This document shows, piece by piece, positions 1,401-14,310 of a stretch of 15,728 bases of DNA. The notes beneath the pieces were generated by a model. The model saw nothing but the letters and a program-made list of their open reading frames with translations. It was not told where the DNA came from and ran no database searches. A program made the position numbers and the translations under genes. Source of the stretch: a virus (lineage: Duplodnaviria > Heunggongvirae > Uroviricota > Caudoviricetes); IMG/VR virus record IMGVR_UViG_2740892229_000020. One strand, written 5' to 3'. Position 1 is the stretch's first letter, and each line of letters starts with the position of its first letter.

Positions 1401-1628
1401 TTAGGCGGCAGAATTACTCGCGTTAAACAATGGTGCGAGGTCGGGACGAATATCTGCTGGTTTAATCTTTCCACCAGTGGCTGAGACAATTTTCATTACA
1501 TAGCGGGCATCAATTCCGCCACCGTGTAGCCAACGCCAAACAGTGGGTTGGGCTACACCGCATAGATCTGCCAGTCGTTTTTGACTACCTGTAATACTGA
1601 TTGCGAGTTGAATGGTTTGATTTGTCAT
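1401..1628 (-). CDS. Cro-like HTH regulator (YdaS/Cro family), ~75 aa
   Basis: Small HTH protein (…QKRLADLCGVAQPTVWRWLHGGG… ATGGKIKPADIRPDL) divergent from the repressor gene. The ORF track starts at a TTG (1634); the ATG at 1626-1628 is preceded by an AGGA Shine-Dalgarno with 7-nt spacing, so I place the start there. Confidence 0.75.
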   Translation of the reverse strand: MTNQTIQLAISITGSQKRLADLCGVAQPTVWRWLHGGGIDARYVMKIVSATGGKIKPADIRPDLAPLFNASNSAA

Positions 1629-1738
1629 TATCAATTCCTATTGGTATTGCAATGAATGAATAATAGCAATGCGTATTAATCCAAGCAATAGCAAAACATG
1701 TTTTGACCATCAATACGCAAGCGTATAAATTAAAACTT
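1629..1738. promoter_or_regulatory. OR-like divergent promoter/operator region between cro-like and CI-like genes
   Basis: About 110 bp of AT-rich intergenic sequence between divergent regulator genes. Contains the palindrome ATTGCAAT (1644-1651), repeated AATAGCAA(T) motifs (1662-1670, 1687-1694) and a plus-strand TTGACC (1704-1709) … TATAAA (1724-1729) pair with a short 14-bp spacer, just upstream of the repressor start. Promoter assignments are tentative. Confidence 0.45.
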
Positions 1739-2431
1739 ATGAAAAAAGAAACTCTTGCTGATCGCTTAAACCTAGCGATGGAACAATCTGGAATGTCTCA
1801 AGGCGCTCTTGCAAAGGCGTCTGGCGTAGCTCAACCCACAATCTGGAGACTGACAAGCGGCAACGCGCGCGGCTCAACAAAAATTGTTGAAATAGCTAAT
1901 GCATTGGGTGTTCGAACAGAATGGCTCTCATCAGGCATAGGCCCGATGAGAAATGACGGTCAACAATCAGGGAAGCCTGCTGTCAGCCATTCCAAATACT
2001 TCAAAATTGACGTTCTTGATATAGAAGTCAGTGCCGGGCCGGGTGTAATCAACCGTGAGTTTGTAGAAGTTCTACGCTCGGTTGAGTACTCGTTTGACGA
2101 TGCTCGTCACATGTTCGATGGCAGGAAGGCGGAAAATATCCGCATCATTAACGTGCGTGGTGACAGCATGTCAGGAACGATCGAACCAGGTGATCTGCTG
2201 TTCGTTGATATCACGGTTAAATCTTTCGACGGTGATGGTATCTATGCGTTTCTGTACGACGACACAGCCCATGTAAAGCGCCTGCAAATGATGAAAGATA
2301 AGCTACTGGTTATCTCTGATAACAAGAGCTACTCACCGTGGGACCCGATCGAGAAAGACGAGATGAACCGGGTGTTCATCTTCGGTAAGGTTATTGGGAG
2401 CATGCCGCAGACGTACAGGAAGCATGGTTAA
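1703..2431 (+). CDS. CI-type prophage repressor (N-terminal HTH, C-terminal LexA-like S24 peptidase domain)
   Basis: HTH segment MSQGALAKASGVAQPTIWRL; Ala-Gly autocleavage-like site (EVSAGPG); catalytic Ser in RGDSMSGTIEPGD and Lys in AHVKRL. Divergent from the cro-like gene. An alternative start at ATG 1739 (MKKETLADRL…) is possible; neither start has a strong Shine-Dalgarno, which would fit a leaderless transcript as for lambda cI. Confidence 0.85.
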   Translation: MTINTQAYKLKLMKKETLADRLNLAMEQSGMSQGALAKASGVAQPTIWRLTSGNARGSTKIVEIANALGVRTEWLSSGIGPMRNDGQQSGKPAVSHSKYFKIDVLDIEVSAGPGVINREFVEVLRSVEYSFDDARHMFDGRKAENIRIINVRGDSMSGTIEPGDLLFVDITVKSFDGDGIYAFLYDDTAHVKRLQMMKDKLLVISDNKSYSPWDPIEKDEMNRVFIFGKVIGSMPQTYRKHG

Positions 2432-2512: not shown

Positions 2513-2986
2513 ATGGAAAAGCCTAGCTTCCCACCTCTTCTTACAGCAGGATTTCATGATATGGATAGTGATGGCATCAAGTCTCTTTGTGTCGACACCT
2601 TCCCAAAATCCGTTAGAAGAAGTATGCTATACTGTAATTTTATACAGCTTATTGAGCAATTTAAACTTGTTAATCAGCAGTGTCTATGTTTCTCTGAAGT
2701 GTGGATCGATGGTTCATTCACTACAGAGAAACCTGAACCTGATGACATAGATATACTCGTGGTCGTCGATTATTTGGCCCTAAACTCTTTGCCAAACACG
2801 CTGATGCCATTGGTTAGCTCATTGTTAAATAGAGATTTTATTAAAGAAAACTACAGCATTGACGTTCTTTTGCTGCCTGAAAATCATCCAGAAATCGATT
2901 ATAGTGAAAGGCGAAGTTACTGGAGAGGGTGGTTTGGTTTTGATCGGAAGGAGAATCCTAAAGGCCTCGTGAGGGTAATGTTATGA
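2513..2986 (+). CDS. Small predicted nucleotidyltransferase-fold protein (157 aa), first gene of an AT-rich two-gene module at the rexAB-equivalent position
   Basis: Complete ORF with a Shine-Dalgarno-like AAGGA upstream. Contains a GS-x10-DxD motif (WIDGSFTTEKPEPDDIDILVVVD) characteristic of Pol-beta-type/minimal nucleotidyltransferases. Noticeably AT-rich compared with flanking phage genes. The fold call is from motif inspection only. Confidence 0.6.
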   Translation: MEKPSFPPLLTAGFHDMDSDGIKSLCVDTFPKSVRRSMLYCNFIQLIEQFKLVNQQCLCFSEVWIDGSFTTEKPEPDDIDILVVVDYLALNSLPNTLMPLVSSLLNRDFIKENYSIDVLLLPENHPEIDYSERRSYWRGWFGFDRKENPKGLVRVML

Positions 2987-3915
2987 GCGAAGAAAAAACA
3001 TTCAACTCCCTCAAGGAGCGAATTGCGTTCATTCAACGCGATGTGGATCTGCTTGCTCAAAATAAGGGGAGATCATTTGCTGATGACATTATATTTAGAT
3101 CACTTGACTCCCATCTGAGCGATCTCCGAGAGAGACAACGTGCAATCGATAACCAACATCCTTTACGTGATTTCATGGAGTTGAGATTAAAAGGTGTTTT
3201 GGTCGATTTCGGGTCTATTCCGTTAGATATTCTATCTGTAATTTCAGGTAATCTCGCATCCCTTGTACAGAAAGCAGTTTACCGACTTGGATCTGGGAAA
3301 GATTCTAGTCGTGTGCCGATTGATGTTAAAAAATCATTAGACATGAGATTGGCAGACTTGCGTCCAGGTTCGACGAAGTTAGGTGTTACTTTTTCTACTG
3401 GTTCTTGCGAGCTCATCGAAACAGTATCCAGTCATGCTGTTAAGGAGATTTTTGCACTACTCTCATCCATTGATGAAGAAACATTCACGGCTAAAATTGC
3501 CGAAATTGGTTCGCAATCAACAGCTAACCTAAAAAACATCATAAATGAGTGCGAAAAATATAGTCTTAACTTTGATCTTACTTGGATTGGACCTTTAAGT
3601 GATGGTACCAGACAAGTGTCAATTTCTTCAGAAGATATAAAAAAACTGAATGCTCGCTTAGCTTTAACGAAGGTCATTCAGCTACCGGATGAGCATATAT
3701 CAGGCGAACTTGCTATTTTATCCATGTACGGGAAATTGGAGATTGCAAGCGAGCTTGGAAAAATAAAGGCTTCTTATCCGATTGATATGTTAGGAGAAAT
3801 TCAAAGTAAATATAAAGTTGGTGAACGAATATCGCTCGTAGTAAGCGTTTCTGAGATTCACAATGAAAGATTAGGAACATCACGACGTAACTACATGGTT
3901 AAAAAAATCGAATAG
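2983..3915 (+). CDS. Hypothetical protein (310 aa), second gene of the two-gene module; function unknown
   Basis: Start ATG overlaps the stop of the upstream gene (ATGA at 2983-2986), with GAGGG 9 nt upstream, indicating translational coupling. AT-rich. Followed by a strong intrinsic terminator. No catalytic motif recognised; contains RSLDSH (an Rx4H pattern) that is not diagnostic on its own. Confidence 0.7.
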   Translation: MSEEKTFNSLKERIAFIQRDVDLLAQNKGRSFADDIIFRSLDSHLSDLRERQRAIDNQHPLRDFMELRLKGVLVDFGSIPLDILSVISGNLASLVQKAVYRLGSGKDSSRVPIDVKKSLDMRLADLRPGSTKLGVTFSTGSCELIETVSSHAVKEIFALLSSIDEETFTAKIAEIGSQSTANLKNIINECEKYSLNFDLTWIGPLSDGTRQVSISSEDIKKLNARLALTKVIQLPDEHISGELAILSMYGKLEIASELGKIKASYPIDMLGEIQSKYKVGERISLVVSVSEIHNERLGTSRRNYMVKKIE

Positions 3916-4681: not shown

Positions 4682-4882
4682 ATGAACGCTTATTACATTC
4701 AGGATCGTCTTGAGGCTCAGAGCTGGGCACGTCACTACCAGCAGATCGCCCGTGAAGAGAAAGAGGCAGAACTGGCAGACGACATGGAAAAAGGCCTGCC
4801 CCAGCACCTGTTTGAATCGCTATGCATCGATCATTTGCAACGCCACGGGGCCAGCAAAAAAGCCATTACCCGTGCGTTTGAT
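4682..4882 (+). CDS. gam: Gam (host RecBCD inhibitor), 5' portion, truncated by the N run at 4883
   Basis: [67 protein letters not shown]… matches lambda Gam. A second allele of the same sequence, differing by a few synonymous substitutions, is at 5594..5890. Confidence 0.8.
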
Positions 4883-4892
4883 NNNNNNNNNN
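4883..4892. other. Run of 10 N (assembly gap or masked junction)
   Basis: Exactly 10 ambiguous bases; the following 104 bp (4893-4996) are a near-copy of 5007-5110. Confidence 0.95.
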
Positions 4893-4996
4893 AAGCGACT
4901 TAAATGCATATGGTGTTGTGTGTGAGTTCGACTGGAATGATGGAAATGGTCAGGAAGGATGGCCTCCAATGGATGGTAGCGAAGGAATAAGAATTA

Positions 4997-5241: not shown

Positions 5242-5406
5242 ATGCAATATGCCATTGCAGGGTGGCCTGTTGCTGGCTGCCCTTCCGAATCTTTACTTGA
5301 ACGAATCACCCGTAAATTACGTGACGGATGGAAACGCCTTATCGACATACTTAATCAGCCAGGAGTCCCGAAAAATGGATCAAACAATTATGGCTATCCA
5401 GACTAA
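5242..5406 (+). CDS. cIII: CIII (protects CII by inhibiting FtsH), 54 aa
   Basis: AGGAG 7 nt upstream of ATG 5242; translation [54 protein letters not shown], near-identical to lambda CIII as I recall it. Shorter than the ORF-track cutoff, so it is not in the track. Confidence 0.85.
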   Translation: MQYAIAGWPVAGCPSESLLERITRKLRDGWKRLIDILNQPGVPKNGSNNYGYPD

Positions 5407-5518
5407 ATTCACTATCGCCACTTTTATTGGCGATGAAAAGATGTTTCGTGAGGCCGTCGACGCTTATAAAAAATGGATATTAATACTGAAACTGAGATCA
5501 AGCAAAAGCATTCACTAA
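5375..5518 (+). CDS. kil: Kil (host cell-division inhibitor), 47 aa
   Basis: ATG 5375 with AGGAG at 5361-5365; [47 protein letters not shown] matches lambda Kil. Overlaps the cIII 3' end in a different frame, as in lambda. Confidence 0.8.
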
Positions 5519-5593: not shown

Positions 5594-5890
5594 ATGAACG
5601 CTTATTACATTCAGGATCGTCTTGAGGCTCAGAGCTGGGCACGTCACTACCAGCAGATCGCCCGTGAAGAGAAAGAGGCAGAACTGGCAGACGACATGGA
5701 AAAAGGTCTTCCACAGCACCTGTTTGAATCACTCTGCATCGATCATTTGCAACGCCACGGGGCCAGCAAAAAAGCCATTACCCGTGCGTTTGATGACGAT
5801 GTTGAGTTTCAGGAGCGCATGGCAGAACACATCCGGTACATGGTTGAAACCATTGCTCACCACCAGGTTGATATTGATTCAGAGGTATAA
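5594..5890 (+). CDS. gam: Gam (RecBCD inhibitor), 98-aa short form
   Basis: Complete ORF whose translation matches lambda Gam; sits directly upstream of bet. Confidence 0.9.
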
Positions 5891-8316: not shown

Positions 8317-8866
8317 TTTCACCGGAAGCAATACTCCTGCCGAACATCGCGACAGCTGGCGCACACCACCAGAGATTTTTGCTGCGCTTAATGCAGAGTT
8401 CGTTTTTCAACTTGATGCTGCCGCCAGCGAAAAAAACCGACTATGTCGGCTTTTTATCTCACAGGAGCAGAACACATTAACCACTTCATGGCCTGAAGCA
8501 ATGGGATATGCCTCTGGTTATGTCTGGTTGAATCCACCATACAGCAATATTTCCCCTTTTGTGAAAAAGGCAGCCACTGAAAACAAATTCAGTAGTGTGG
8601 GATGTGTAATGTTATTGCCTGCTGACACATCTGTCGGATGGTTTCATGAAGCGATACAAACCGCCAGTGAGGTCAGATTCATCACGGCAGGACGACTGGC
8701 ATTTATTAACCCACTCACTGAGAAACCCGTCAGTGGAAATAATAAAGGCTCGATGCTCATTATCTGGCACCCATACCCCCGTACACACTGCCACTTTACG
8801 ACCGTTGATCGTGGAGAGTTGATGGCGTTCGGCTCAAGGATTCTTGCCCGTCGGGAGGCTGCATGA
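8309..8866 (+). CDS. Phage-type DNA N6-adenine methyltransferase (Dam family), 185 aa
   Basis: Catalytic NPPY motif (YVWLNPPYSN). Size and overall sequence character fit the small phage Dam N6-A methyltransferase family. Start overlaps the upstream ORF. Confidence 0.75.
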   Translation: MTDFTGSNTPAEHRDSWRTPPEIFAALNAEFVFQLDAAASEKNRLCRLFISQEQNTLTTSWPEAMGYASGYVWLNPPYSNISPFVKKAATENKFSSVGCVMLLPADTSVGWFHEAIQTASEVRFITAGRLAFINPLTEKPVSGNNKGSMLIIWHPYPRTHCHFTTVDRGELMAFGSRILARREAA

Positions 8867-8942
8867 CAACCACGGAATGCATTTTTCTGGCAGCGGGCTT
8901 CATATTCTGTGTGCTTATGCTTGCCGACATGGGACTTGTTCA

Positions 8943-9158
8943 ATGACACCTCAGCAGGAAAACGCCCTTCGCAGCATTGCCCGTCAGGCTAATTCTGAAA
9001 TCAAAAAAGCCAGACAGCAGTTTCCGGATAAAAACGTCGATGACATTTGCCGTAGCGTACTAAAGAAGCACCGCGAAACGGTAACGCTGATGGGATTCAC
9101 ACCGACTCATTTAAGCCTGGCGATCGGCATGTTAAACGGCGTCTTTAAGGAACGGTGA
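8943..9158 (+). CDS. Hypothetical early-left protein, 71 aa (lambda orf61 region)
   Basis: MTPQQENALRSIARQANSEIKKARQQFPDKNVDDICRSVLKKHRETVTLMGFTPTHLSLAIGMLNGVFKER; present identically in both cassette variants (second copy inside 9716..10027). An N-terminal extension from an upstream start (TTG 8844) is possible. Confidence 0.55.
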   Translation: MTPQQENALRSIARQANSEIKKARQQFPDKNVDDICRSVLKKHRETVTLMGFTPTHLSLAIGMLNGVFKER

Positions 9159-9571: not shown

Positions 9572-9735
9572 GAACGAGTATCGAGATGGCACATAGCCTC
9601 GCTCAAATTGGAGTCAGGTTTGTGCCAATACCAGTAGAAACAGACGAAGAATTTCATACGTTAGCCGCATCCCTTTCACAAAAGCTGGAAATGATGGTGG
9701 CGAAAGCAGAAGCAGATGAGAGAGACCAGGTATGA
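9544..9735 (+). CDS. Lambda orf63-like protein, 63 aa
   Basis: 63-codon ORF overlapping the orf60a 3' end and overlapped by the next ORF by 20 nt, which is the arrangement I recall for orf63/orf61 in lambda. Confidence 0.65.
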   Translation: MHKASPVELRTSIEMAHSLAQIGVRFVPIPVETDEEFHTLAASLSQKLEMMVAKAEADERDQV

Positions 9736-10027
9736 CAACCACGGAATGCATTTTTCTGGCAGCGGGCTTCATATTTTGTGTGCTTATGCTTGCCGACATG
9801 GGACTTGTTCAATGACACCTCAGCAAGAAAACGCCCTTCGCAGCATTGCCCGTCTGGCTAACTCTGAAATCAAAAAAGCCAGACAGCAGTTTCCGGATAA
9901 AAACGTCGATGACATTTGCCGTAGCGTACTAAAGAAGCACCGCGAAACGGTAACGCTGATGGGATTCACACCGACTCATTTAAGTCTGGCGATCGGCATG
10001 TTAAACGGCGTCTTTAAGGAGCGATGA
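9716..10027 (+). CDS. Hypothetical early-left protein (lambda orf61 region), 103 aa from ATG 9716; shares its C-terminal 71 aa with 8943..9158
   Basis: ATG 9716 lies 20 nt before the orf63 stop. An alternative shorter start is MTPQQ at 9812, which has a GGGA Shine-Dalgarno-like element. Confidence 0.55.
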   Translation: MRETRYDNHGMHFSGSGLHILCAYACRHGTCSMTPQQENALRSIARLANSEIKKARQQFPDKNVDDICRSVLKKHRETVTLMGFTPTHLSLAIGMLNGVFKER

Positions 10028-10125: not shown

Positions 10126-10347
10126 ATGGCAGACATCATTGATTCAGCATCAGAAATTGAAGAATTACAGCGCAACACAGCAATAAAAATGCGCCGCCTG
10201 AACCACCAGGCTATATCTGCCACTCATTGTTGTGAGTGTGGCGATCCGATAGATGAACGAAGACGCCTGGTCGTTCAGGGTTGTCGGACTTGTGCAAGTT
10301 GCCAGGAGGATCTGGAGCTTATCAGTAAACAGAGAGGTTCGAAGTGA
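10126..10347 (+). CDS. TraR/DksA-family C4 zinc-finger protein (lambda orf73-like), 73 aa
   Basis: Four-cysteine motif CCECGDPIDERRR…GCRTCASCQ with TraR-like size and spacing. Lambda orf73 is a TraR homologue from memory. Confidence 0.75.
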   Translation: MADIIDSASEIEELQRNTAIKMRRLNHQAISATHCCECGDPIDERRRLVVQGCRTCASCQEDLELISKQRGSK

Positions 10348-10760
10348 GCGAAATTAACTCTCAGGCACTGCGTGAGGCGGCAGTAGCAATTGAAACAGTA
10401 GCAACGCCTCAAAAATTGCTGGCATTTCGTATGAAAGTCACACCTCAGGTTGTGCTGGCACTGCTGGATGAACGGGAAAGAAACCAGCAATACATCAAAC
10501 GCCGCGACCAAGAGAACGAGGATATTGCGTTAACGGTAGGGAAGTTGCGCGTTGAGCTTGAGGCAGAAAAACAGCGGGCAAAGGATCTGTTTATGGAAAA
10601 TGCTCGGCTTAAGTCAGGTATAGCCGGTCTGATACACCTCGGTATTCGATATGCAGATGTTGAGGTCATGAGAATTGCTGGAGATGCCCAGCTTTCTACC
10701 CCATGCACTGACAGCATCATAAACAGCATTGCAACAGGCATTCGCATCAAAGGAGAGTGA
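10344..10760 (+). CDS. Ead/Ea22-like protein (138 aa)
   Basis: GTG start overlapping the upstream stop (GTGA). N-terminus MSEINSQALREAA…, LDERERNQQYIKRRDQENEDIALTVGKLRVELEAEKQ coiled-coil segment and C-terminal …GIRIKGE are typical of Ead/Ea22-like prophage proteins as I recall them. Confidence 0.55.
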   Translation: MSEINSQALREAAVAIETVATPQKLLAFRMKVTPQVVLALLDERERNQQYIKRRDQENEDIALTVGKLRVELEAEKQRAKDLFMENARLKSGIAGLIHLGIRYADVEVMRIAGDAQLSTPCTDSIINSIATGIRIKGE

Positions 10761-10761
10761 T

Positions 10762-11427
10762 ATGAGCGCTATAACCAAAGAACGTATCAAATTATTCATT
10801 AAAAATCCGCTTGATAACGGACTTACTCGTGGCGAACAAATGGAACTGGCACGAATTGCACTGGCATCACTGGAACGCGAACAGATTCGCCACGAGCATG
10901 CCAAATGGTCTGACTCCACATTTGGCTGCGTTGGCCCCATTGGTCCGCTGAAACATCTCTCAAAAGAGGCACTGGAAGCCGCAGCCGAACCTGACGATCT
11001 CAGCGAGTGGGCTGATATGCAGTTCCTGTTGTGGGATGCACAGCGCCGTGCTGGTATCAGTGATGCTGAAATTACCGCTGCTATGGAAAATAAATTGAAG
11101 ATCAACATGGAGCGCCAGTGGCCTGAACCAAAAGATGGTGAGCCTCGTTTGCACATTAAAGAACCCGGCAACTCTCCGGTAACTCCGGATGGTTGGATAA
11201 GCTGTAGTGAGCGAATGCCTGAAATGGGAGAGCGACAATGCTATGTGTTAGCAGCTGACTTTAAAAACAACTACCCACCAAACATCCCCAACACTCAGGT
11301 CGGCGTATATGGCGACTGGTTTAATGATGGCAAGCCCACTTGGGATGACGGTGATGGCGAAGACCTGTATCTCAAAGAGGTAACCCACTGGATGCAGCTA
11401 CCAGAACCGCCGCAGGAGGTGAAATGA
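10762..11427 (+). CDS. DUF551-like prophage protein (221 aa)
   Basis: AGGAG 6 nt upstream of ATG 10762. C-terminal segment …CYVLAADFKNNYPPNIPNTQVGVYGDWFNDGKPTWDDGDGEDLYLKEVTHWMQLPEPPQ matches the characteristic DUF551 C-terminus from memory. Confidence 0.65.
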   Translation: MSAITKERIKLFIKNPLDNGLTRGEQMELARIALASLEREQIRHEHAKWSDSTFGCVGPIGPLKHLSKEALEAAAEPDDLSEWADMQFLLWDAQRRAGISDAEITAAMENKLKINMERQWPEPKDGEPRLHIKEPGNSPVTPDGWISCSERMPEMGERQCYVLAADFKNNYPPNIPNTQVGVYGDWFNDGKPTWDDGDGEDLYLKEVTHWMQLPEPPQEVK

Positions 11428-11510
11428 TGAATTGGCCTGAAGCATTCACCGCAGTTGGAGTTGCAATAGCGGTGGCATTTATTCTGTATTCGCTTTTCCG
11501 CTGGGGATAA
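11424..11510 (+). CDS. Small hydrophobic peptide (28 aa), predicted single transmembrane helix
   Basis: Strong Shine-Dalgarno AGGAGG (11414-11419) 4 nt upstream; ATG overlaps the upstream stop (ATGA). MMNWPEAFTAVGVAIAVAFILYSLFRWG. Below the ORF-track size cutoff. Confidence 0.5.
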   Translation: MMNWPEAFTAVGVAIAVAFILYSLFRWG

Positions 11511-11514
11511 AGGA

Positions 11515-11757
11515 ATGTTCGCTCTGATTCAACGTGGTCAGATATACACGGACAGAGCCGGATACCCTGTGGTGATTACTCGCAGTACTCAGCACTCAGT
11601 GTTCTTTCGACGCATGGACGGGCGCTCCGGACGGGTACGCATTGGTGAGTTCAACAACCTGTTCGAACATATTGACCAACAGGAGTACCGCAAAATTCTG
11701 GCGGGCACTGAGCAGGAAATGCGCCTGAAAAAATTACGCGCAATGCAACGGAGGTGA
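11515..11757 (+). CDS. Hypothetical protein, 80 aa (possibly DUF4222-like)
   Basis: Complete ORF in the early-left gene string; MFALIQRGQIYTDRAGYPVVITRSTQHSVFFRRMDGRSGRVRIGEFNNLFEHIDQQEYRKILAGTEQEMRLKKLRAMQRR. Family call is a weak recollection. Confidence 0.55.
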   Translation: MFALIQRGQIYTDRAGYPVVITRSTQHSVFFRRMDGRSGRVRIGEFNNLFEHIDQQEYRKILAGTEQEMRLKKLRAMQRR

Positions 11758-11783
11758 TACATGCATACGGCTTTTGAGTTCTG

Positions 11784-11793
11784 NNNNNNNNNN
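11784..11793. other. Run of 10 N (assembly gap or masked junction)
   Basis: Interrupts an ORF that begins at ATG 11761 (MHTAFEF…) and resumes in-frame sequence after the run. Confidence 0.95.
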
Positions 11794-11794
11794 A

Positions 11795-11878
11795 GAAGCC
11801 AAAGATAAAATCATCGCTGAGCAGGAGAAAATCGCTAACGGAGAAAAGACAGTAAGTCAGTATATGAAAACCGCATGA
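11795..11878 (+). CDS. 3'-terminal fragment of a hypothetical gene (possibly ea8.5-like), probably the same gene that starts at 11761 before the N run
   Basis: In-frame …EAKDKIIAEQEKIANGEKTVSQYMKTA ending at TGA 11876-11878. The ea8.5 assignment is positional only. Confidence 0.35.
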   Translation, partial: EAKDKIIAEQEKIANGEKTVSQYMKTA

Positions 11879-11933
11879 TATCATCAGATAAAAATCGGTC
11901 GTAAAGCGAAATATTAATACCAGAACAAACGAG

Positions 11934-11991: not shown

Positions 11992-12594
11992 TCATTCAGT
12001 ATCATCACGCGCGGTCTGTGCATATGTCACTACCGCACCTAATATATTAATTTTCTTTTCAACATAGATAATATTATCGTACTCATAATTGCCATACGGA
12101 TAGCAAATGCGAATATTCTCATGTAGTTCGGGGTCATCCACCTCAGCTCCAGAACAACTTTTTGAACTACCGGAAGTATACCGATACGGTGCAACATAAG
12201 ACGATGTCTCTCCAGGCAAAAAATAAGTTAGTGTCGTAAGGGGTATAATCAGAAAAAATCCAGCAAATATGCACATCCCTGCATAAACCTTAAGGTATGC
12301 TGACAGACTCTTCCAGCCTCTTTGTTTTACTATCCCCTTCTTAACCCAAAACAGAGATAACAGAAAAGCTATTCCCATGCTAAACAGAATGTAATAGTGG
12401 GATATACTCTGATTAAGAAACGTGACCCTGTAGATATCTGCCCGCCACCAGAAGAAAAGGAAAATAAAGATCAGCCCTGAAACTGTCATGCAAATCAAAT
12501 AAGGATACGAATCTTTTTTCATGTTTAGCGCCCATAAAATTTTTCCTGACCCGGACAAATTTACCATCCATTTTTTGCGCAGAAAATAGCTCAT
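11992..12594 (-). CDS. Predicted integral membrane protein (about 3 TM helices plus a C-terminal soluble domain), AT-rich reverse-oriented accessory gene
   Basis: Minus-strand ORF of 200 aa (176 aa if the start is the internal Met at 12520-12522). Hydrophobic segments YLICMTVSGLIFIFLFFWW, YYILFSMGIAFLLSLFWV and VYAGMCIFAGFFLIIPLTTLTYFL. Opposite orientation to all surrounding phage genes and markedly AT-rich. Confidence 0.6.
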   Translation of the reverse strand: MSYFLRKKWMVNLSGSGKILWALNMKKDSYPYLICMTVSGLIFIFLFFWWRADIYRVTFLNQSISHYYILFSMGIAFLLSLFWVKKGIVKQRGWKSLSAYLKVYAGMCIFAGFFLIIPLTTLTYFLPGETSSYVAPYRYTSGSSKSCSGAEVDDPELHENIRICYPYGNYEYDNIIYVEKKINILGAVVTYAQTARDDTE

Positions 12595-13043: not shown

Positions 13044-13262
13044 ATGTACTTGACACTTCAGGAGTGGAACGCACGCCAGCGACGCCCAAGAAGCCTTGAA
13101 ACAGTTCGTCGATGGGTACGCGAGTGCAGGATATTCCCTCCTCCGGTTAAGGATGGAAGAGAGTATCTGTTCCACGAATCAGCGGTAAAGGTTGACTTAA
13201 ATCGACCAGTAACAGGTAGCCTTTTGAAGAGGATCAGAAATGGGAAGAAGGCGAAGTCATGA
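13044..13262 (+). CDS. xis: Excisionase Xis (72 aa)
   Basis: MYLTLQEWNARQRRPRSLETVRRWVRECRIFPPPVKDGREYLFHESAVKVDLNRPVTGSLLKRIRNGKKAKS matches lambda Xis; overlaps the int start by 23 nt as in lambda. Confidence 0.92.
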   Translation: MYLTLQEWNARQRRPRSLETVRRWVRECRIFPPPVKDGREYLFHESAVKVDLNRPVTGSLLKRIRNGKKAKS

Positions 13263-14310
13263 GCGCCGGGATTTACCCCCTAACCTTTATATAAGAAACA
13301 ATGGATATTACTGCTACAGGGACCCAAGGACGGGTAAAGAGTTTGGATTAGGCAGAGACAGGCGAATCGCAATCACTGAAGCCATACAGGCCAACATTGA
13401 GTTATTTTCAGGACACAAACACAAGCCTCTGACAGCGAGAATCAACAGTGATAATTCCGTTACATTACATTCATGGCTTGATCGCTACGAAAAAATCCTG
13501 GCCAGCAGAGGAATCAAGCAGAAGACACTCATAAATTACATGAGCAAAATTAAAGCAATAAGGAGGGGTCTGCCTGATGCTCCACTTGAAGACATCACCA
13601 CAAAAGAAATTGCGGCAATGCTCAATGGATACATAGACGAGGGCAAGGCGGCGTCAGCCAAGTTAATCAGATCAACACTGAGCGATGCATTCCGAGAGGC
13701 AATAGCTGAAGGCCATATAACAACAAACCCTGTCGCTGCCACTCGCGCAGCAAAATCAGAGGTAAGGAGATCAAGACTTACGGCTGACGAATACCTGAAA
13801 ATTTATCAAGCAGCAGAATCATCACCATGTTGGCTCAGACTTGCAATGGAACTGGCTGTTGTTACCGGGCAACGAGTTGGTGATTTATGCGAAATGAAGT
13901 GGTCTGATATCGTAGATGGATATCTTTATGTCGAGCAAAGCAAAACAGGCGTAAAAATTGCCATCCCAACAGCATTGCATGTTGATGCTCTCGGAATATC
14001 AATGAAGGAAACACTTGATAAATGCAAAGAGATTCTTGGCGGAGAAACCATAATTGCATCTACTCGTCGTGAACCGCTTTCATCCGGCACAGTATCAAGG
14101 TATTTTATGCGCGCACGAAAAGCATCAGGTCTTTCCTTCGAAGGGGATCCGCCTACCTTTCACGAGTTGCGCAGTTTGTCTGCAAGACTCTATGAGAAGC
14201 AGATAAGCGATAAGTTTGCTCAACATCTTCTCGGGCATAAGTCGGACACCATGGCATCACAGTATCGTGATGACAGAGGCAGGGAGTGGGACAAAATTGA
14301 AATCAAATAA
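13240..14310 (+). CDS. int: Tyrosine integrase Int (lambda-type), 356 aa
   Basis: Full-length match to lambda Int (MGRRRSHERRDLPPNLYIRNNGYYCYRDPRTGKEFGLGRDRRIAITEAIQ… catalytic region …HELRSLSARLYEKQISDKFAQHLLGHKSDTMASQYRDDRG). Confidence 0.95.
   Translation: MGRRRSHERRDLPPNLYIRNNGYYCYRDPRTGKEFGLGRDRRIAITEAIQANIELFSGHKHKPLTARINSDNSVTLHSWLDRYEKILASRGIKQKTLINYMSKIKAIRRGLPDAPLEDITTKEIAAMLNGYIDEGKAASAKLIRSTLSDAFREAIAEGHITTNPVAATRAAKSEVRRSRLTADEYLKIYQAAESSPCWLRLAMELAVVTGQRVGDLCEMKWSDIVDGYLYVEQSKTGVKIAIPTALHVDALGISMKETLDKCKEILGGETIIASTRREPLSSGTVSRYFMRARKASGLSFEGDPPTFHELRSLSARLYEKQISDKFAQHLLGHKSDTMASQYRDDRGREWDKIEIK

Follow-up and report, generated by a model that had tools for sequence, protein, structure and literature searches.

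The small single-pass regulatory proteins of the enterobacterial inner membrane (reviewed in PMC12648545) are represented by KdpF (29 amino acids, aa), PmrR (29 aa), MgtS (31 aa), MgtR (30 aa) and AcrZ (49 aa). Proteins of this class, which consist of one hydrophobic helix with minimal tails, were long missed by annotation and are presumed to act through helix-helix contacts. In phage lambda and in the Shiga toxin (Stx) phage 24B, the exo-xis region, which is transcribed from the pL promoter, contains several small open reading frames (ORFs) of unknown function and, when present in multicopy, affects both induction and lysogenisation in lambda and Stx phages through mechanisms that are largely unknown (PMC4195576). 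Here we describe a small ORF (sORF) in a 15,728-nucleotide (nt) stretch of DNA (IMG/VR record IMGVR_UViG_2740892229_000020; the whole stretch is denoted the window below) that is a lambda-like prophage. The sORF lies in the exo-xis part, near the distal end of the leftward early (pL) operon. Our overall reading, to which we assign a probability of roughly 0.6, is that it is an unannotated gene of 27 codons which would encode a single-pass, partner-binding protein of the inner membrane. Its 87 bases carry no annotation in any of the GenBank and RefSeq records inspected, where they form a gap between two annotated genes.

The sORF product resembles the KdpF/MgtS class in its size, its one hydrophobic helix, its minimal tails, the presumed helix-helix contact and its long neglect by annotation. 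With at most 50 aa and one transmembrane (TM) helix, both by hydrophobicity prediction only, it falls within the definition of small single-pass membrane regulatory proteins. Unlike the members of that class, it shows no significant sequence similarity to them in Pfam, NCBIfam or the PDB, is phage-borne rather than chromosomal, and appears to be translationally coupled within an early operon. The described exo-xis ORFs (orf60a, orf63, orf61, orf73/TraR-like, ea22 and ea8.5) share with the sORF the region, the pL transcription and a small, accessory and mosaic character, and their roles in the lysis-lysogeny balance are mostly unknown (PMC4195576); the sORF, however, is not among them, is much shorter and is predicted to be membrane-embedded.

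The sORF, its signals and its two adjacent genes are located in the window as follows.

10729..11427, + strand: upstream gene, in which dATP/dGTP pyrophosphohydrolase and DUF551 are fused (PF04447, 4.3e-42; PF04448, 4e-20)
11414..11419, + strand: Shine-Dalgarno (SD) sequence AGGAGG, within the last codons of the upstream gene, read directly
11424..11510, + strand: sORF as defined by the initial annotation, running from the first ATG to the TAA stop, with 28 codons before the stop; product MMNWPEAFTAVGVAIAVAFILYSLFRWG
11425..11427, + strand: TGA with which the upstream gene ends and which overlaps the two candidate starts (ATGA, TGATG)
11427..11510, + strand: conserved core sORF, 27 codons from the second ATG, the probable true start; product MNWPEAFTAVGVAIAVAFILYSLFRWG
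11508-11510, + strand: TAA stop of the sORF, read directly
11503..11517, + strand: junction to the next gene, with GGGGA at 11503-11507 (in the Trp-Gly codons), TAA at 11508-11510 and the ATG of the DUF4222 gene at 11515
11515..11757, + strand: downstream DUF4222 gene, 80 aa (PF13973, 9.3e-16), a frequent and not an obligatory neighbour

From about position 11410 the window reads CCGCAGGAGGTGAAATGATGAATTGG. The ATG at 11424, the TAA stop and the 28-aa product were all located where the initial annotation had put them, and the upstream gene, which it had described as DUF551-like, indeed contains PF04448, alongside PF04447; for this gene, the ATG at 10762 seems a likelier start than the listed TTG at 10729. 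The optimal spacing between an SD sequence and the start codon is about 5-9 nt. The AGGAGG does lie 4 nt upstream of the ATG at 11424, but this distance, which had been regarded as ideal, is short, whereas the ATG at 11427 is 7 nt away. This second ATG aligns with the single ATG of the relatives, so that the conserved product is 27 aa long, and is the probable true start; the first ATG is a lineage-specific addition that is replaced by GTG in strain PM4-5 and is absent from most relatives. The proposed coupling to the upstream stop agrees with the layout: the TGA at 11425-11427 overlaps the start, and this overlap, together with an SD sequence inside the upstream coding sequence, is the arrangement of coupled gene pairs. 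The ATG of the DUF4222 gene follows after a 4-nt gap from the sORF stop. Including the stop, the sORF spans 87 nt, below the customary length cut-offs of annotation.

The window contains 179 ORFs of 20-60 aa (start to stop), among which the length of the sORF is not unusual, and its hydrophobicity ranks fourth (maximum 19-residue Kyte-Doolittle mean, 2.28). A strong SD sequence combined with hydrophobicity at the level of a TM segment is found in 2 of the 179, and AGGAGG occurs only three times on the + strand of the window. The ORF alone is thus not beyond chance; its significance stems from its conservation across relatives.

The DNA around the sORF matches Stx1- and Stx2-converting phages, BP-4795, YYZ-2008, VT1-Sakai and others. 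Among 5426 complete Escherichia coli genomes, the variant of the window is present in 547 and the commonest variant, MTWPEAFTTVGIAMAVALVVYSICRWG, in 1370; the sORF family accordingly occurs in at least a quarter of them. When the homologous gap was read in 13 loci, the same sORF was seen, and three diverged peptide forms, MTWPDAFAIVGVAMSIALIVFAICRWG, MSWPDAIVTLGMVFAAAFVVYSICRWG and MTWPEALTTVGIAMAVTLMVYSICRWG, occupy the same slot. A tblastn search with one diverged form as the query retrieved 93 phage records, including 933W, VT2-Sakai, many Stx2 phages, ArgO145, the virulent phage Av-05 (Vequintavirinae) and similar large phages. In 933W, the copy occupies 58829..58909 of NC_000924.1 on the minus strand, stop included. 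The sORF was not found in phage lambda, and the eight records named ‘Enterobacteria’ among the tblastn matches are all other phages. A scan of IMG/VR with a looser pattern, combined with the earlier loci, yielded at least 135 open-frame pattern matches, with at least about 40 peptide strings and at least 54-56 distinct nucleotide versions; 35 confirmed peptide variants were tabulated for the analysis of residues and hydrophobicity. When one genome per species was scanned with a degenerate pattern, the only true copies came from Escherichia and Shigella and from two tiny contigs, and most of the 42 matches were out-of-frame chance matches in high-GC genomes. The intact copies on the two contigs, assigned to ‘Xanthomonas pisi’ (431 bp) and ‘Acinetobacter idrijaensis’ (369 bp), one of which encodes a peptide identical to that of the 933W copy, are most likely assembly contamination. 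In K-12, neither tblastn nor a six-frame ORF profile search detected a homologue in the prophages Rac, e14 and Qin, DLP12 being left out of this comparison.

The genes adjacent to the sORF vary on both sides. The 5′ gene may encode DUF551, an Ea22-like protein, a pyrophosphohydrolase or one of several proteins without a Pfam domain, and the 3′ neighbours include DUF4222, hok/sok, RelE/ParD, terminator-like hairpins and others. Thus, the sORF is followed by hok/sok in 933W, by unrelated genes in Av-05 and 666R9, and by a terminator-like hairpin and then a convergent RelE/ParD module in ArgO145, yet in all four of these phages its start falls exactly on the stop of the preceding gene. An obligate pairing with either DUF4222 or DUF551 was therefore rejected, and the sORF moves as a unit of its own.

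Several lines of evidence indicate that the sORF codes for a protein. Of 59 distinct contexts, the great majority retain the ATG, a purine-rich SD sequence and the overlap of this ATG with the stop of the preceding gene, the SD-like purine run 5′ of the ATG persists across the homologous contexts listed, and the position of the stop is kept despite differing stop codons (TAA, TGA) and Gly codons. The frame is open in all 54 distinct sequences, in each of which the other two forward frames contain stops, and the entropy at codon positions 1, 2 and 3 is 0.39, 0.27 and 0.85, respectively. The pairwise Nei-Gojobori ratio of nonsynonymous to synonymous substitution rates (dN/dS) has a median of 0.21 and is below 1 for all pairs. 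Because the search pattern fixed six codons, the calculation was repeated on the 18 pattern-free interior codons, with a median of 0.24 and 98% of the pairs below 1. Between ArgO145 and Av-05, which represent independent lineages, there are 17 nucleotide differences, 12 of them in third positions, and five amino-acid changes (dN 0.087, dS 1.2). A further sample was blind to the sORF itself, its loci being selected solely through the SD region on the upstream side and the start of the DUF4222 gene; here 90 of the 91 copies (11 distinct sequences) are intact, and the other has a frameshift. The initial annotation had named the lack of a conserved frame in related prophages as the observation that would speak against a gene; the frame was examined in these relatives and is conserved. 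The conserved frame, start, SD sequence, overlap and stop, combined with purifying selection in unrelated neighbourhoods, strongly support its proposal of a real gene, and we consider it very likely that the sORF is translated.

The predicted product is 27 codons long in all variants collected, and its maximum 19-residue Kyte-Doolittle mean lies between 1.71 and 2.76 in each of the 35 tabulated variants, in line with the single-helix membrane peptide suggested by the initial annotation. With only slightly less confidence than for translation itself, the product can be taken for a single-pass membrane peptide. The N-terminal tip, M-(T/S/N)-W-P-(E/D)-A, has a net negative charge, and the C-terminal tip, (C/F)-R-W-(G), is aromatic with a net positive charge. 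The topology of membrane proteins is governed by the positive-inside rule, according to which an acidic N-terminal tip and a basic C-terminal tip would place the N-terminus in the periplasm and the C-terminus in the cytoplasm; this is the probable orientation. Several positions not enforced by the search are nearly invariant, namely G11 (34/35), A15 (32/35), A17 (31/35), S22 (29/35), I23 (33/35) and C24 (34/35), as is Y/F21, which no search imposed; the variant of the window is the outlier, with S-L-F in place of S-I-C. In a helix, G11, A15 and S22 share one face and A13 and A17 lie on the adjoining one, and such a face of small residues (G/A/S) would be a surface of the type used for helix-helix packing. 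A lipoprotein signal peptide was considered and rejected: under the lipobox rule, Y-S-I before the Cys does not qualify, and a basic N-region is lacking.

The sORF peptide gave only sub-threshold and inconsistent matches in Pfam, NCBIfam and PHROGs, and a profile search of the PDB found nothing. The matches to DUF883_C, B12D, PTR2, KdpF and phrog_4612 (the last with E = 1e-3, for one variant only) were treated as chance hydrophobic similarity. The peptide strings occur in no searchable paper and are absent from the supplements of the Sakai ribosome profiling (Ribo-seq) paper and of the Enterobacteriaceae microproteome preprint. The sORF thus appears to define a new family of small proteins, the members of which would be unannotated phage membrane microproteins.

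Lambda Kil acts on FtsZ and is not a TM peptide. The suggestion of the initial annotation that the peptide might be Kil-like does not hold as homology: the peptide and three variants give no match to Lambda_Kil (PF06301) at E<=1, whereas the ORF at 5249..5518 of the window matches it with E = 1.3e-18, which shows that this prophage has its Kil function at another place. A host-membrane effector, the other suggestion made there, is a reasonable candidate role. With the early-left division inhibitors Kil of lambda and KilR of Rac, the sORF shares the small size of the product and the location in the pL early-left operon, but it has no homology to Kil. Holins are encoded in the lysis cassette beside the endolysin, contain at least one TM segment and a charged C-terminal tail, and are usually longer than 60 aa. 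A holin was rejected for the sORF, which lies in the early-left exo-xis region between ea22-like genes and xis/int and has a C-terminal tail of three residues.

Several observations weigh against the reading of the sORF as a gene for a partner-binding membrane protein. The pattern by which much of the sample was gathered fixes 6 of the 27 codons, and the family is limited to close relatives, the phages of Escherichia and Shigella, so that the divergence is shallow. Broken copies exist: in Shigella phage POCJ13 (locus L018, 1501..1584), codon 3 is changed from TGG to TAG (W3 stop); in E. coli MLI121 (locus L007, ~1540..1603), the copy is shortened and frameshifted and reads in frame into the DUF4222 gene without a start codon of its own; and one of the 91 flank-anchored IMG/VR copies is disrupted as well. 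The sORF is therefore dispensable, at least in prophages. The Ribo-seq survey of strain Sakai covered, by design, only ORFs of at least 30 aa (PMC5597208), so that the sORF is outside its scope. Two further points, the open antisense frame and the double role of the C-terminal codons, bear on specific alternatives.

Given the 179 ORFs of comparable size in the window, the sORF might be a chance ORF, or else its coding signal might be the by-product of a conserved antisense ORF or of a conserved element at the RNA or DNA level. On the antisense strand, the frame with the same wobble positions is open too and has an equally low dN/dS of 0.22, such that dN/dS alone cannot pick the strand, and antisense ORFs are annotated at this place in some records. 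These antisense ORFs, however, are inconsistent: from one context to another, their frame, length and start codon change, and their starts range from -182 to +286 with respect to the sORF; in the window, the first antisense start lies inside the sORF, so that this ORF would cover about one quarter of it. The start, SD sequence and stop are kept only by the forward ORF, and this, along with the inconsistency of the antisense ORFs, is the basis of the strand assignment; antisense coding was accordingly rejected. An RNA element was rejected as well, given that the region has no match to an Rfam family and that its folding is no more stable than that of shuffled sequence (z=+1.3); nor was a promoter found. 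Taken together, explanations of this kind are extremely improbable. Equally improbable is a programmed frameshift that would fuse the helix to the upstream protein, yielding a membrane-anchored DUF551 protein and no free peptide. Relative to the upstream gene, the sORF lies in the -1 frame, and the SD-like sequence just before the upstream stop is reminiscent of recoding sites of the prfB type. A conserved slippery sequence is nevertheless missing, the junctions being GTGAAATGATG, GTGAATCAATGA, ATTTTACGATGA and GATGAATCAATGA depending on the context, the upstream proteins are unrelated, and an ATG with a properly spaced SD sequence, for which a fusion has no need, is always present.

It might also matter only that the sORF is translated, either to lead ribosomes on from the DUF551 to the DUF4222 gene or to shield the transcript from Rho. 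The ATGA overlap upstream and the distance of 4 nt to the DUF4222 ATG downstream fit such a role, and the C-terminal R-W-G codons, CGC-TGG-GGA, contain a GGGGA 7 nt before the DUF4222 ATG that is probably the SD sequence of that gene, since the same arrangement of GGGGA, 7-nt gap and ATG recurs in other DUF4222 contexts. The notion that R-W-G is kept merely for this purpose was rejected: these residues persist without DUF4222, with GGT or GGG as the Gly codon and with a TGA stop. The amino-acid sequence itself is under purifying selection, with dN/dS of about 0.2, the length of 27 codons is invariant, hydrophobicity is retained throughout the tabulated variants, and the sORF is kept where no coupled gene follows it (933W, ArgO145, 666R9 and many IMG/VR loci), some copies running straight into terminator-like hairpins. 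A spacer role is hence highly improbable. The strongest competitor, itself unlikely, is a toxin-like effector which would damage the inner membrane in lytic growth by depolarising or permeabilising it, with no specific partner. The size and the purely hydrophobic helix are similar to those of toxins of the IbsC, ShoB, DinQ and TisB type (reviewed in PMC12648545), the sORF is located in a lytic early operon and is also found in a virulent phage, and hok/sok (often so in Stx phages) or other toxin-antitoxin modules frequently adjoin it. Apart from the small hydrophobic membrane peptide, the hallmarks of type I toxins (Hok/Gef, IbsC, ShoB, DinQ, TisB) are lacking: searches of Rfam, promoter scans and folding revealed no antisense RNA, no own promoter and no structured or occluded mRNA around the ribosome-binding site, and homology to these toxins is absent. 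Expression within a polycistronic early operon, from a strong and exposed SD sequence that is coupled to the preceding gene, is the reverse of the way in which type I toxins are controlled. The toxin-antitoxin modules nearby differ between contexts and in some cases lie on the other strand, and so look like independent insertions at the end of the operon, and the small-residue face with its W-P-E-A and R-W-G tips fits specific recognition better than membrane damage.

For a partner-binding membrane protein, the following course of events could be envisaged. Whenever the pL operon is transcribed, upon infection or induction, ribosomes would probably start on the sORF by coupling or re-initiation after the upstream gene, given that the SD sequence sits in the last codons of that gene and the ATG overlaps its stop. 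The peptide would insert into the membrane as one TM helix, N-terminus out and C-terminus in, and its small-residue face could pack against another TM helix, which might belong to a membrane protein of the host or the phage or to a second copy of the peptide. Through such packing, the peptide would modulate some membrane function in the early stage of lytic growth, the action in lytic development being suggested by the early-operon position and the presence in a virulent phage. The partner-binding mode through the small-residue face is the more tentative part of this scheme and, taken separately, stands at somewhat less than even odds.

Some indirect support for expression comes from strain Sakai, in which prophage Sp15 carries an identical sORF at about 2941818..2941904 (+ strand) of NC_002695.2. 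In the absence of induction, the flanking Sp15 genes ECs3004, ECs3006 and ECs5482, the last being a 44-aa gene after DUF4222, give both RNA-seq and Ribo-seq signal (PMC5597208, S2 Table), with translatome values in the first condition of 192, 75 and 38 reads per kilobase per million (RPKM), respectively (PMC5597208). This signal of the flanking genes is indirect support for the expression of the sORF operon. Within 11300-11900 of the window, no promoter-like site was found on either strand and no terminator-like site either, which is consistent with the sORF being expressed as part of the operon.

The remaining genes of the window that place the sORF in its genomic setting are these.

1703..2431, + strand: cI-type repressor
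5249..5518, + strand: Kil homologue (the PF06301 match covers residues 44-74 of the listed ORF, the real start being probably internal to it)
between the Kil homologue and Dam, + strand: Gam, RecT and YqaJ-type exonuclease
between the exonuclease and the TraR/DksA-like gene, + strand: Dam
10126..10347, + strand: TraR/DksA-like zinc-finger protein
10344..10760, + strand: Ea22-like protein
13044..13262, + strand: excisionase
13240..14310, + strand: lambda-type integrase
after the integrase, + strand: pectinesterase-like host gene

Right after the cI-like repressor, two overlapping genes, 2513..2986 (+) and 2983..3915 (+), match the PADLOC candidate defence pair PDC-M63A (7e-43) and PDC-M63B (4e-42), the first of them also corresponding to Pfam DUF6932; the two genes probably form a defence module that the prophage carries in its immunity region. 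On the minus strand, a 200-aa ORF (11992..12594, -) situated between DUF4222 and xis contains several long hydrophobic stretches and has no match in Pfam or PADLOC; with a terminator-like hairpin beside it at 11957-11934, it looks like an independently expressed moron. The window also contains six pairs of direct repeats with 96-98% identity and irregular spacing (4600-4882/5512-5794, 4883-4996/4997-5110, 5816-6115/6513-6812, 7199-7291/7302-7394, 8043-8304/9277-9538 and 8863-9162/9732-10031), which duplicate parts of the gam, recT and orf61-like region; there are two RecT ORFs, and a truncated Gam (4682..4903) exists alongside a full one (5594..5890). A run of ten Ns (11785-11794) breaks the small gene after DUF4222. 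The repeats and the N run look like the outcome of a draft assembly in which several similar prophages were joined into a chimera, or else of genuine patchwork duplication.

A second hydrophobic ORF of 27 aa, MTTTECIFLAAGFIFCVLMLADMGLVQ, is present in the window in two copies, 8863..8946 (+) and 9732..9815 (+). Its sequence is unrelated to that of the sORF, which it resembles in length, hydrophobicity, ATGA coupling, operon and lack of annotation, the difference being that it is coupled at both ends: its ATG overlaps the preceding stop, that of Dam in the first copy and of an orf63/DUF1382-like gene in the second, and its stop overlaps the ATG of a 71-aa gene. An identical ORF in phage 434 (locus L262, 601..684) fills an unannotated 76-nt gap after orf63, and the stretch is found in 179 phage records at >=95% identity. 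The exo-xis region may thus repeatedly contain peptides of this kind that have been overlooked. A broader scheme, which together with the effector role we regard as decidedly unlikely, would have the exo-xis regions of lambdoid and Stx phages hide several tiny coupled TM peptides that move as ‘micro-morons’, each made up of an SD sequence, an overlapping ATG and 27 codons and attaching 3′ of any gene. At least one such peptide could serve as an effector directed specifically at an inner-membrane protein of the host, for instance, a transporter, a protease or a membrane-bound defence or exclusion system.

Standard annotation misses the sORF, which is nonetheless present in the best-studied Stx phages (933W, VT1-Sakai and VT2-Sakai), and surveys with a floor of 30 aa (e.g., PMC5597208) miss real genes of this size. 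If the sORF is merely accessory, the outcome would be a corrected annotation and a model for a new family of small proteins; otherwise, it may represent a candidate effector in the poorly understood exo-xis region.

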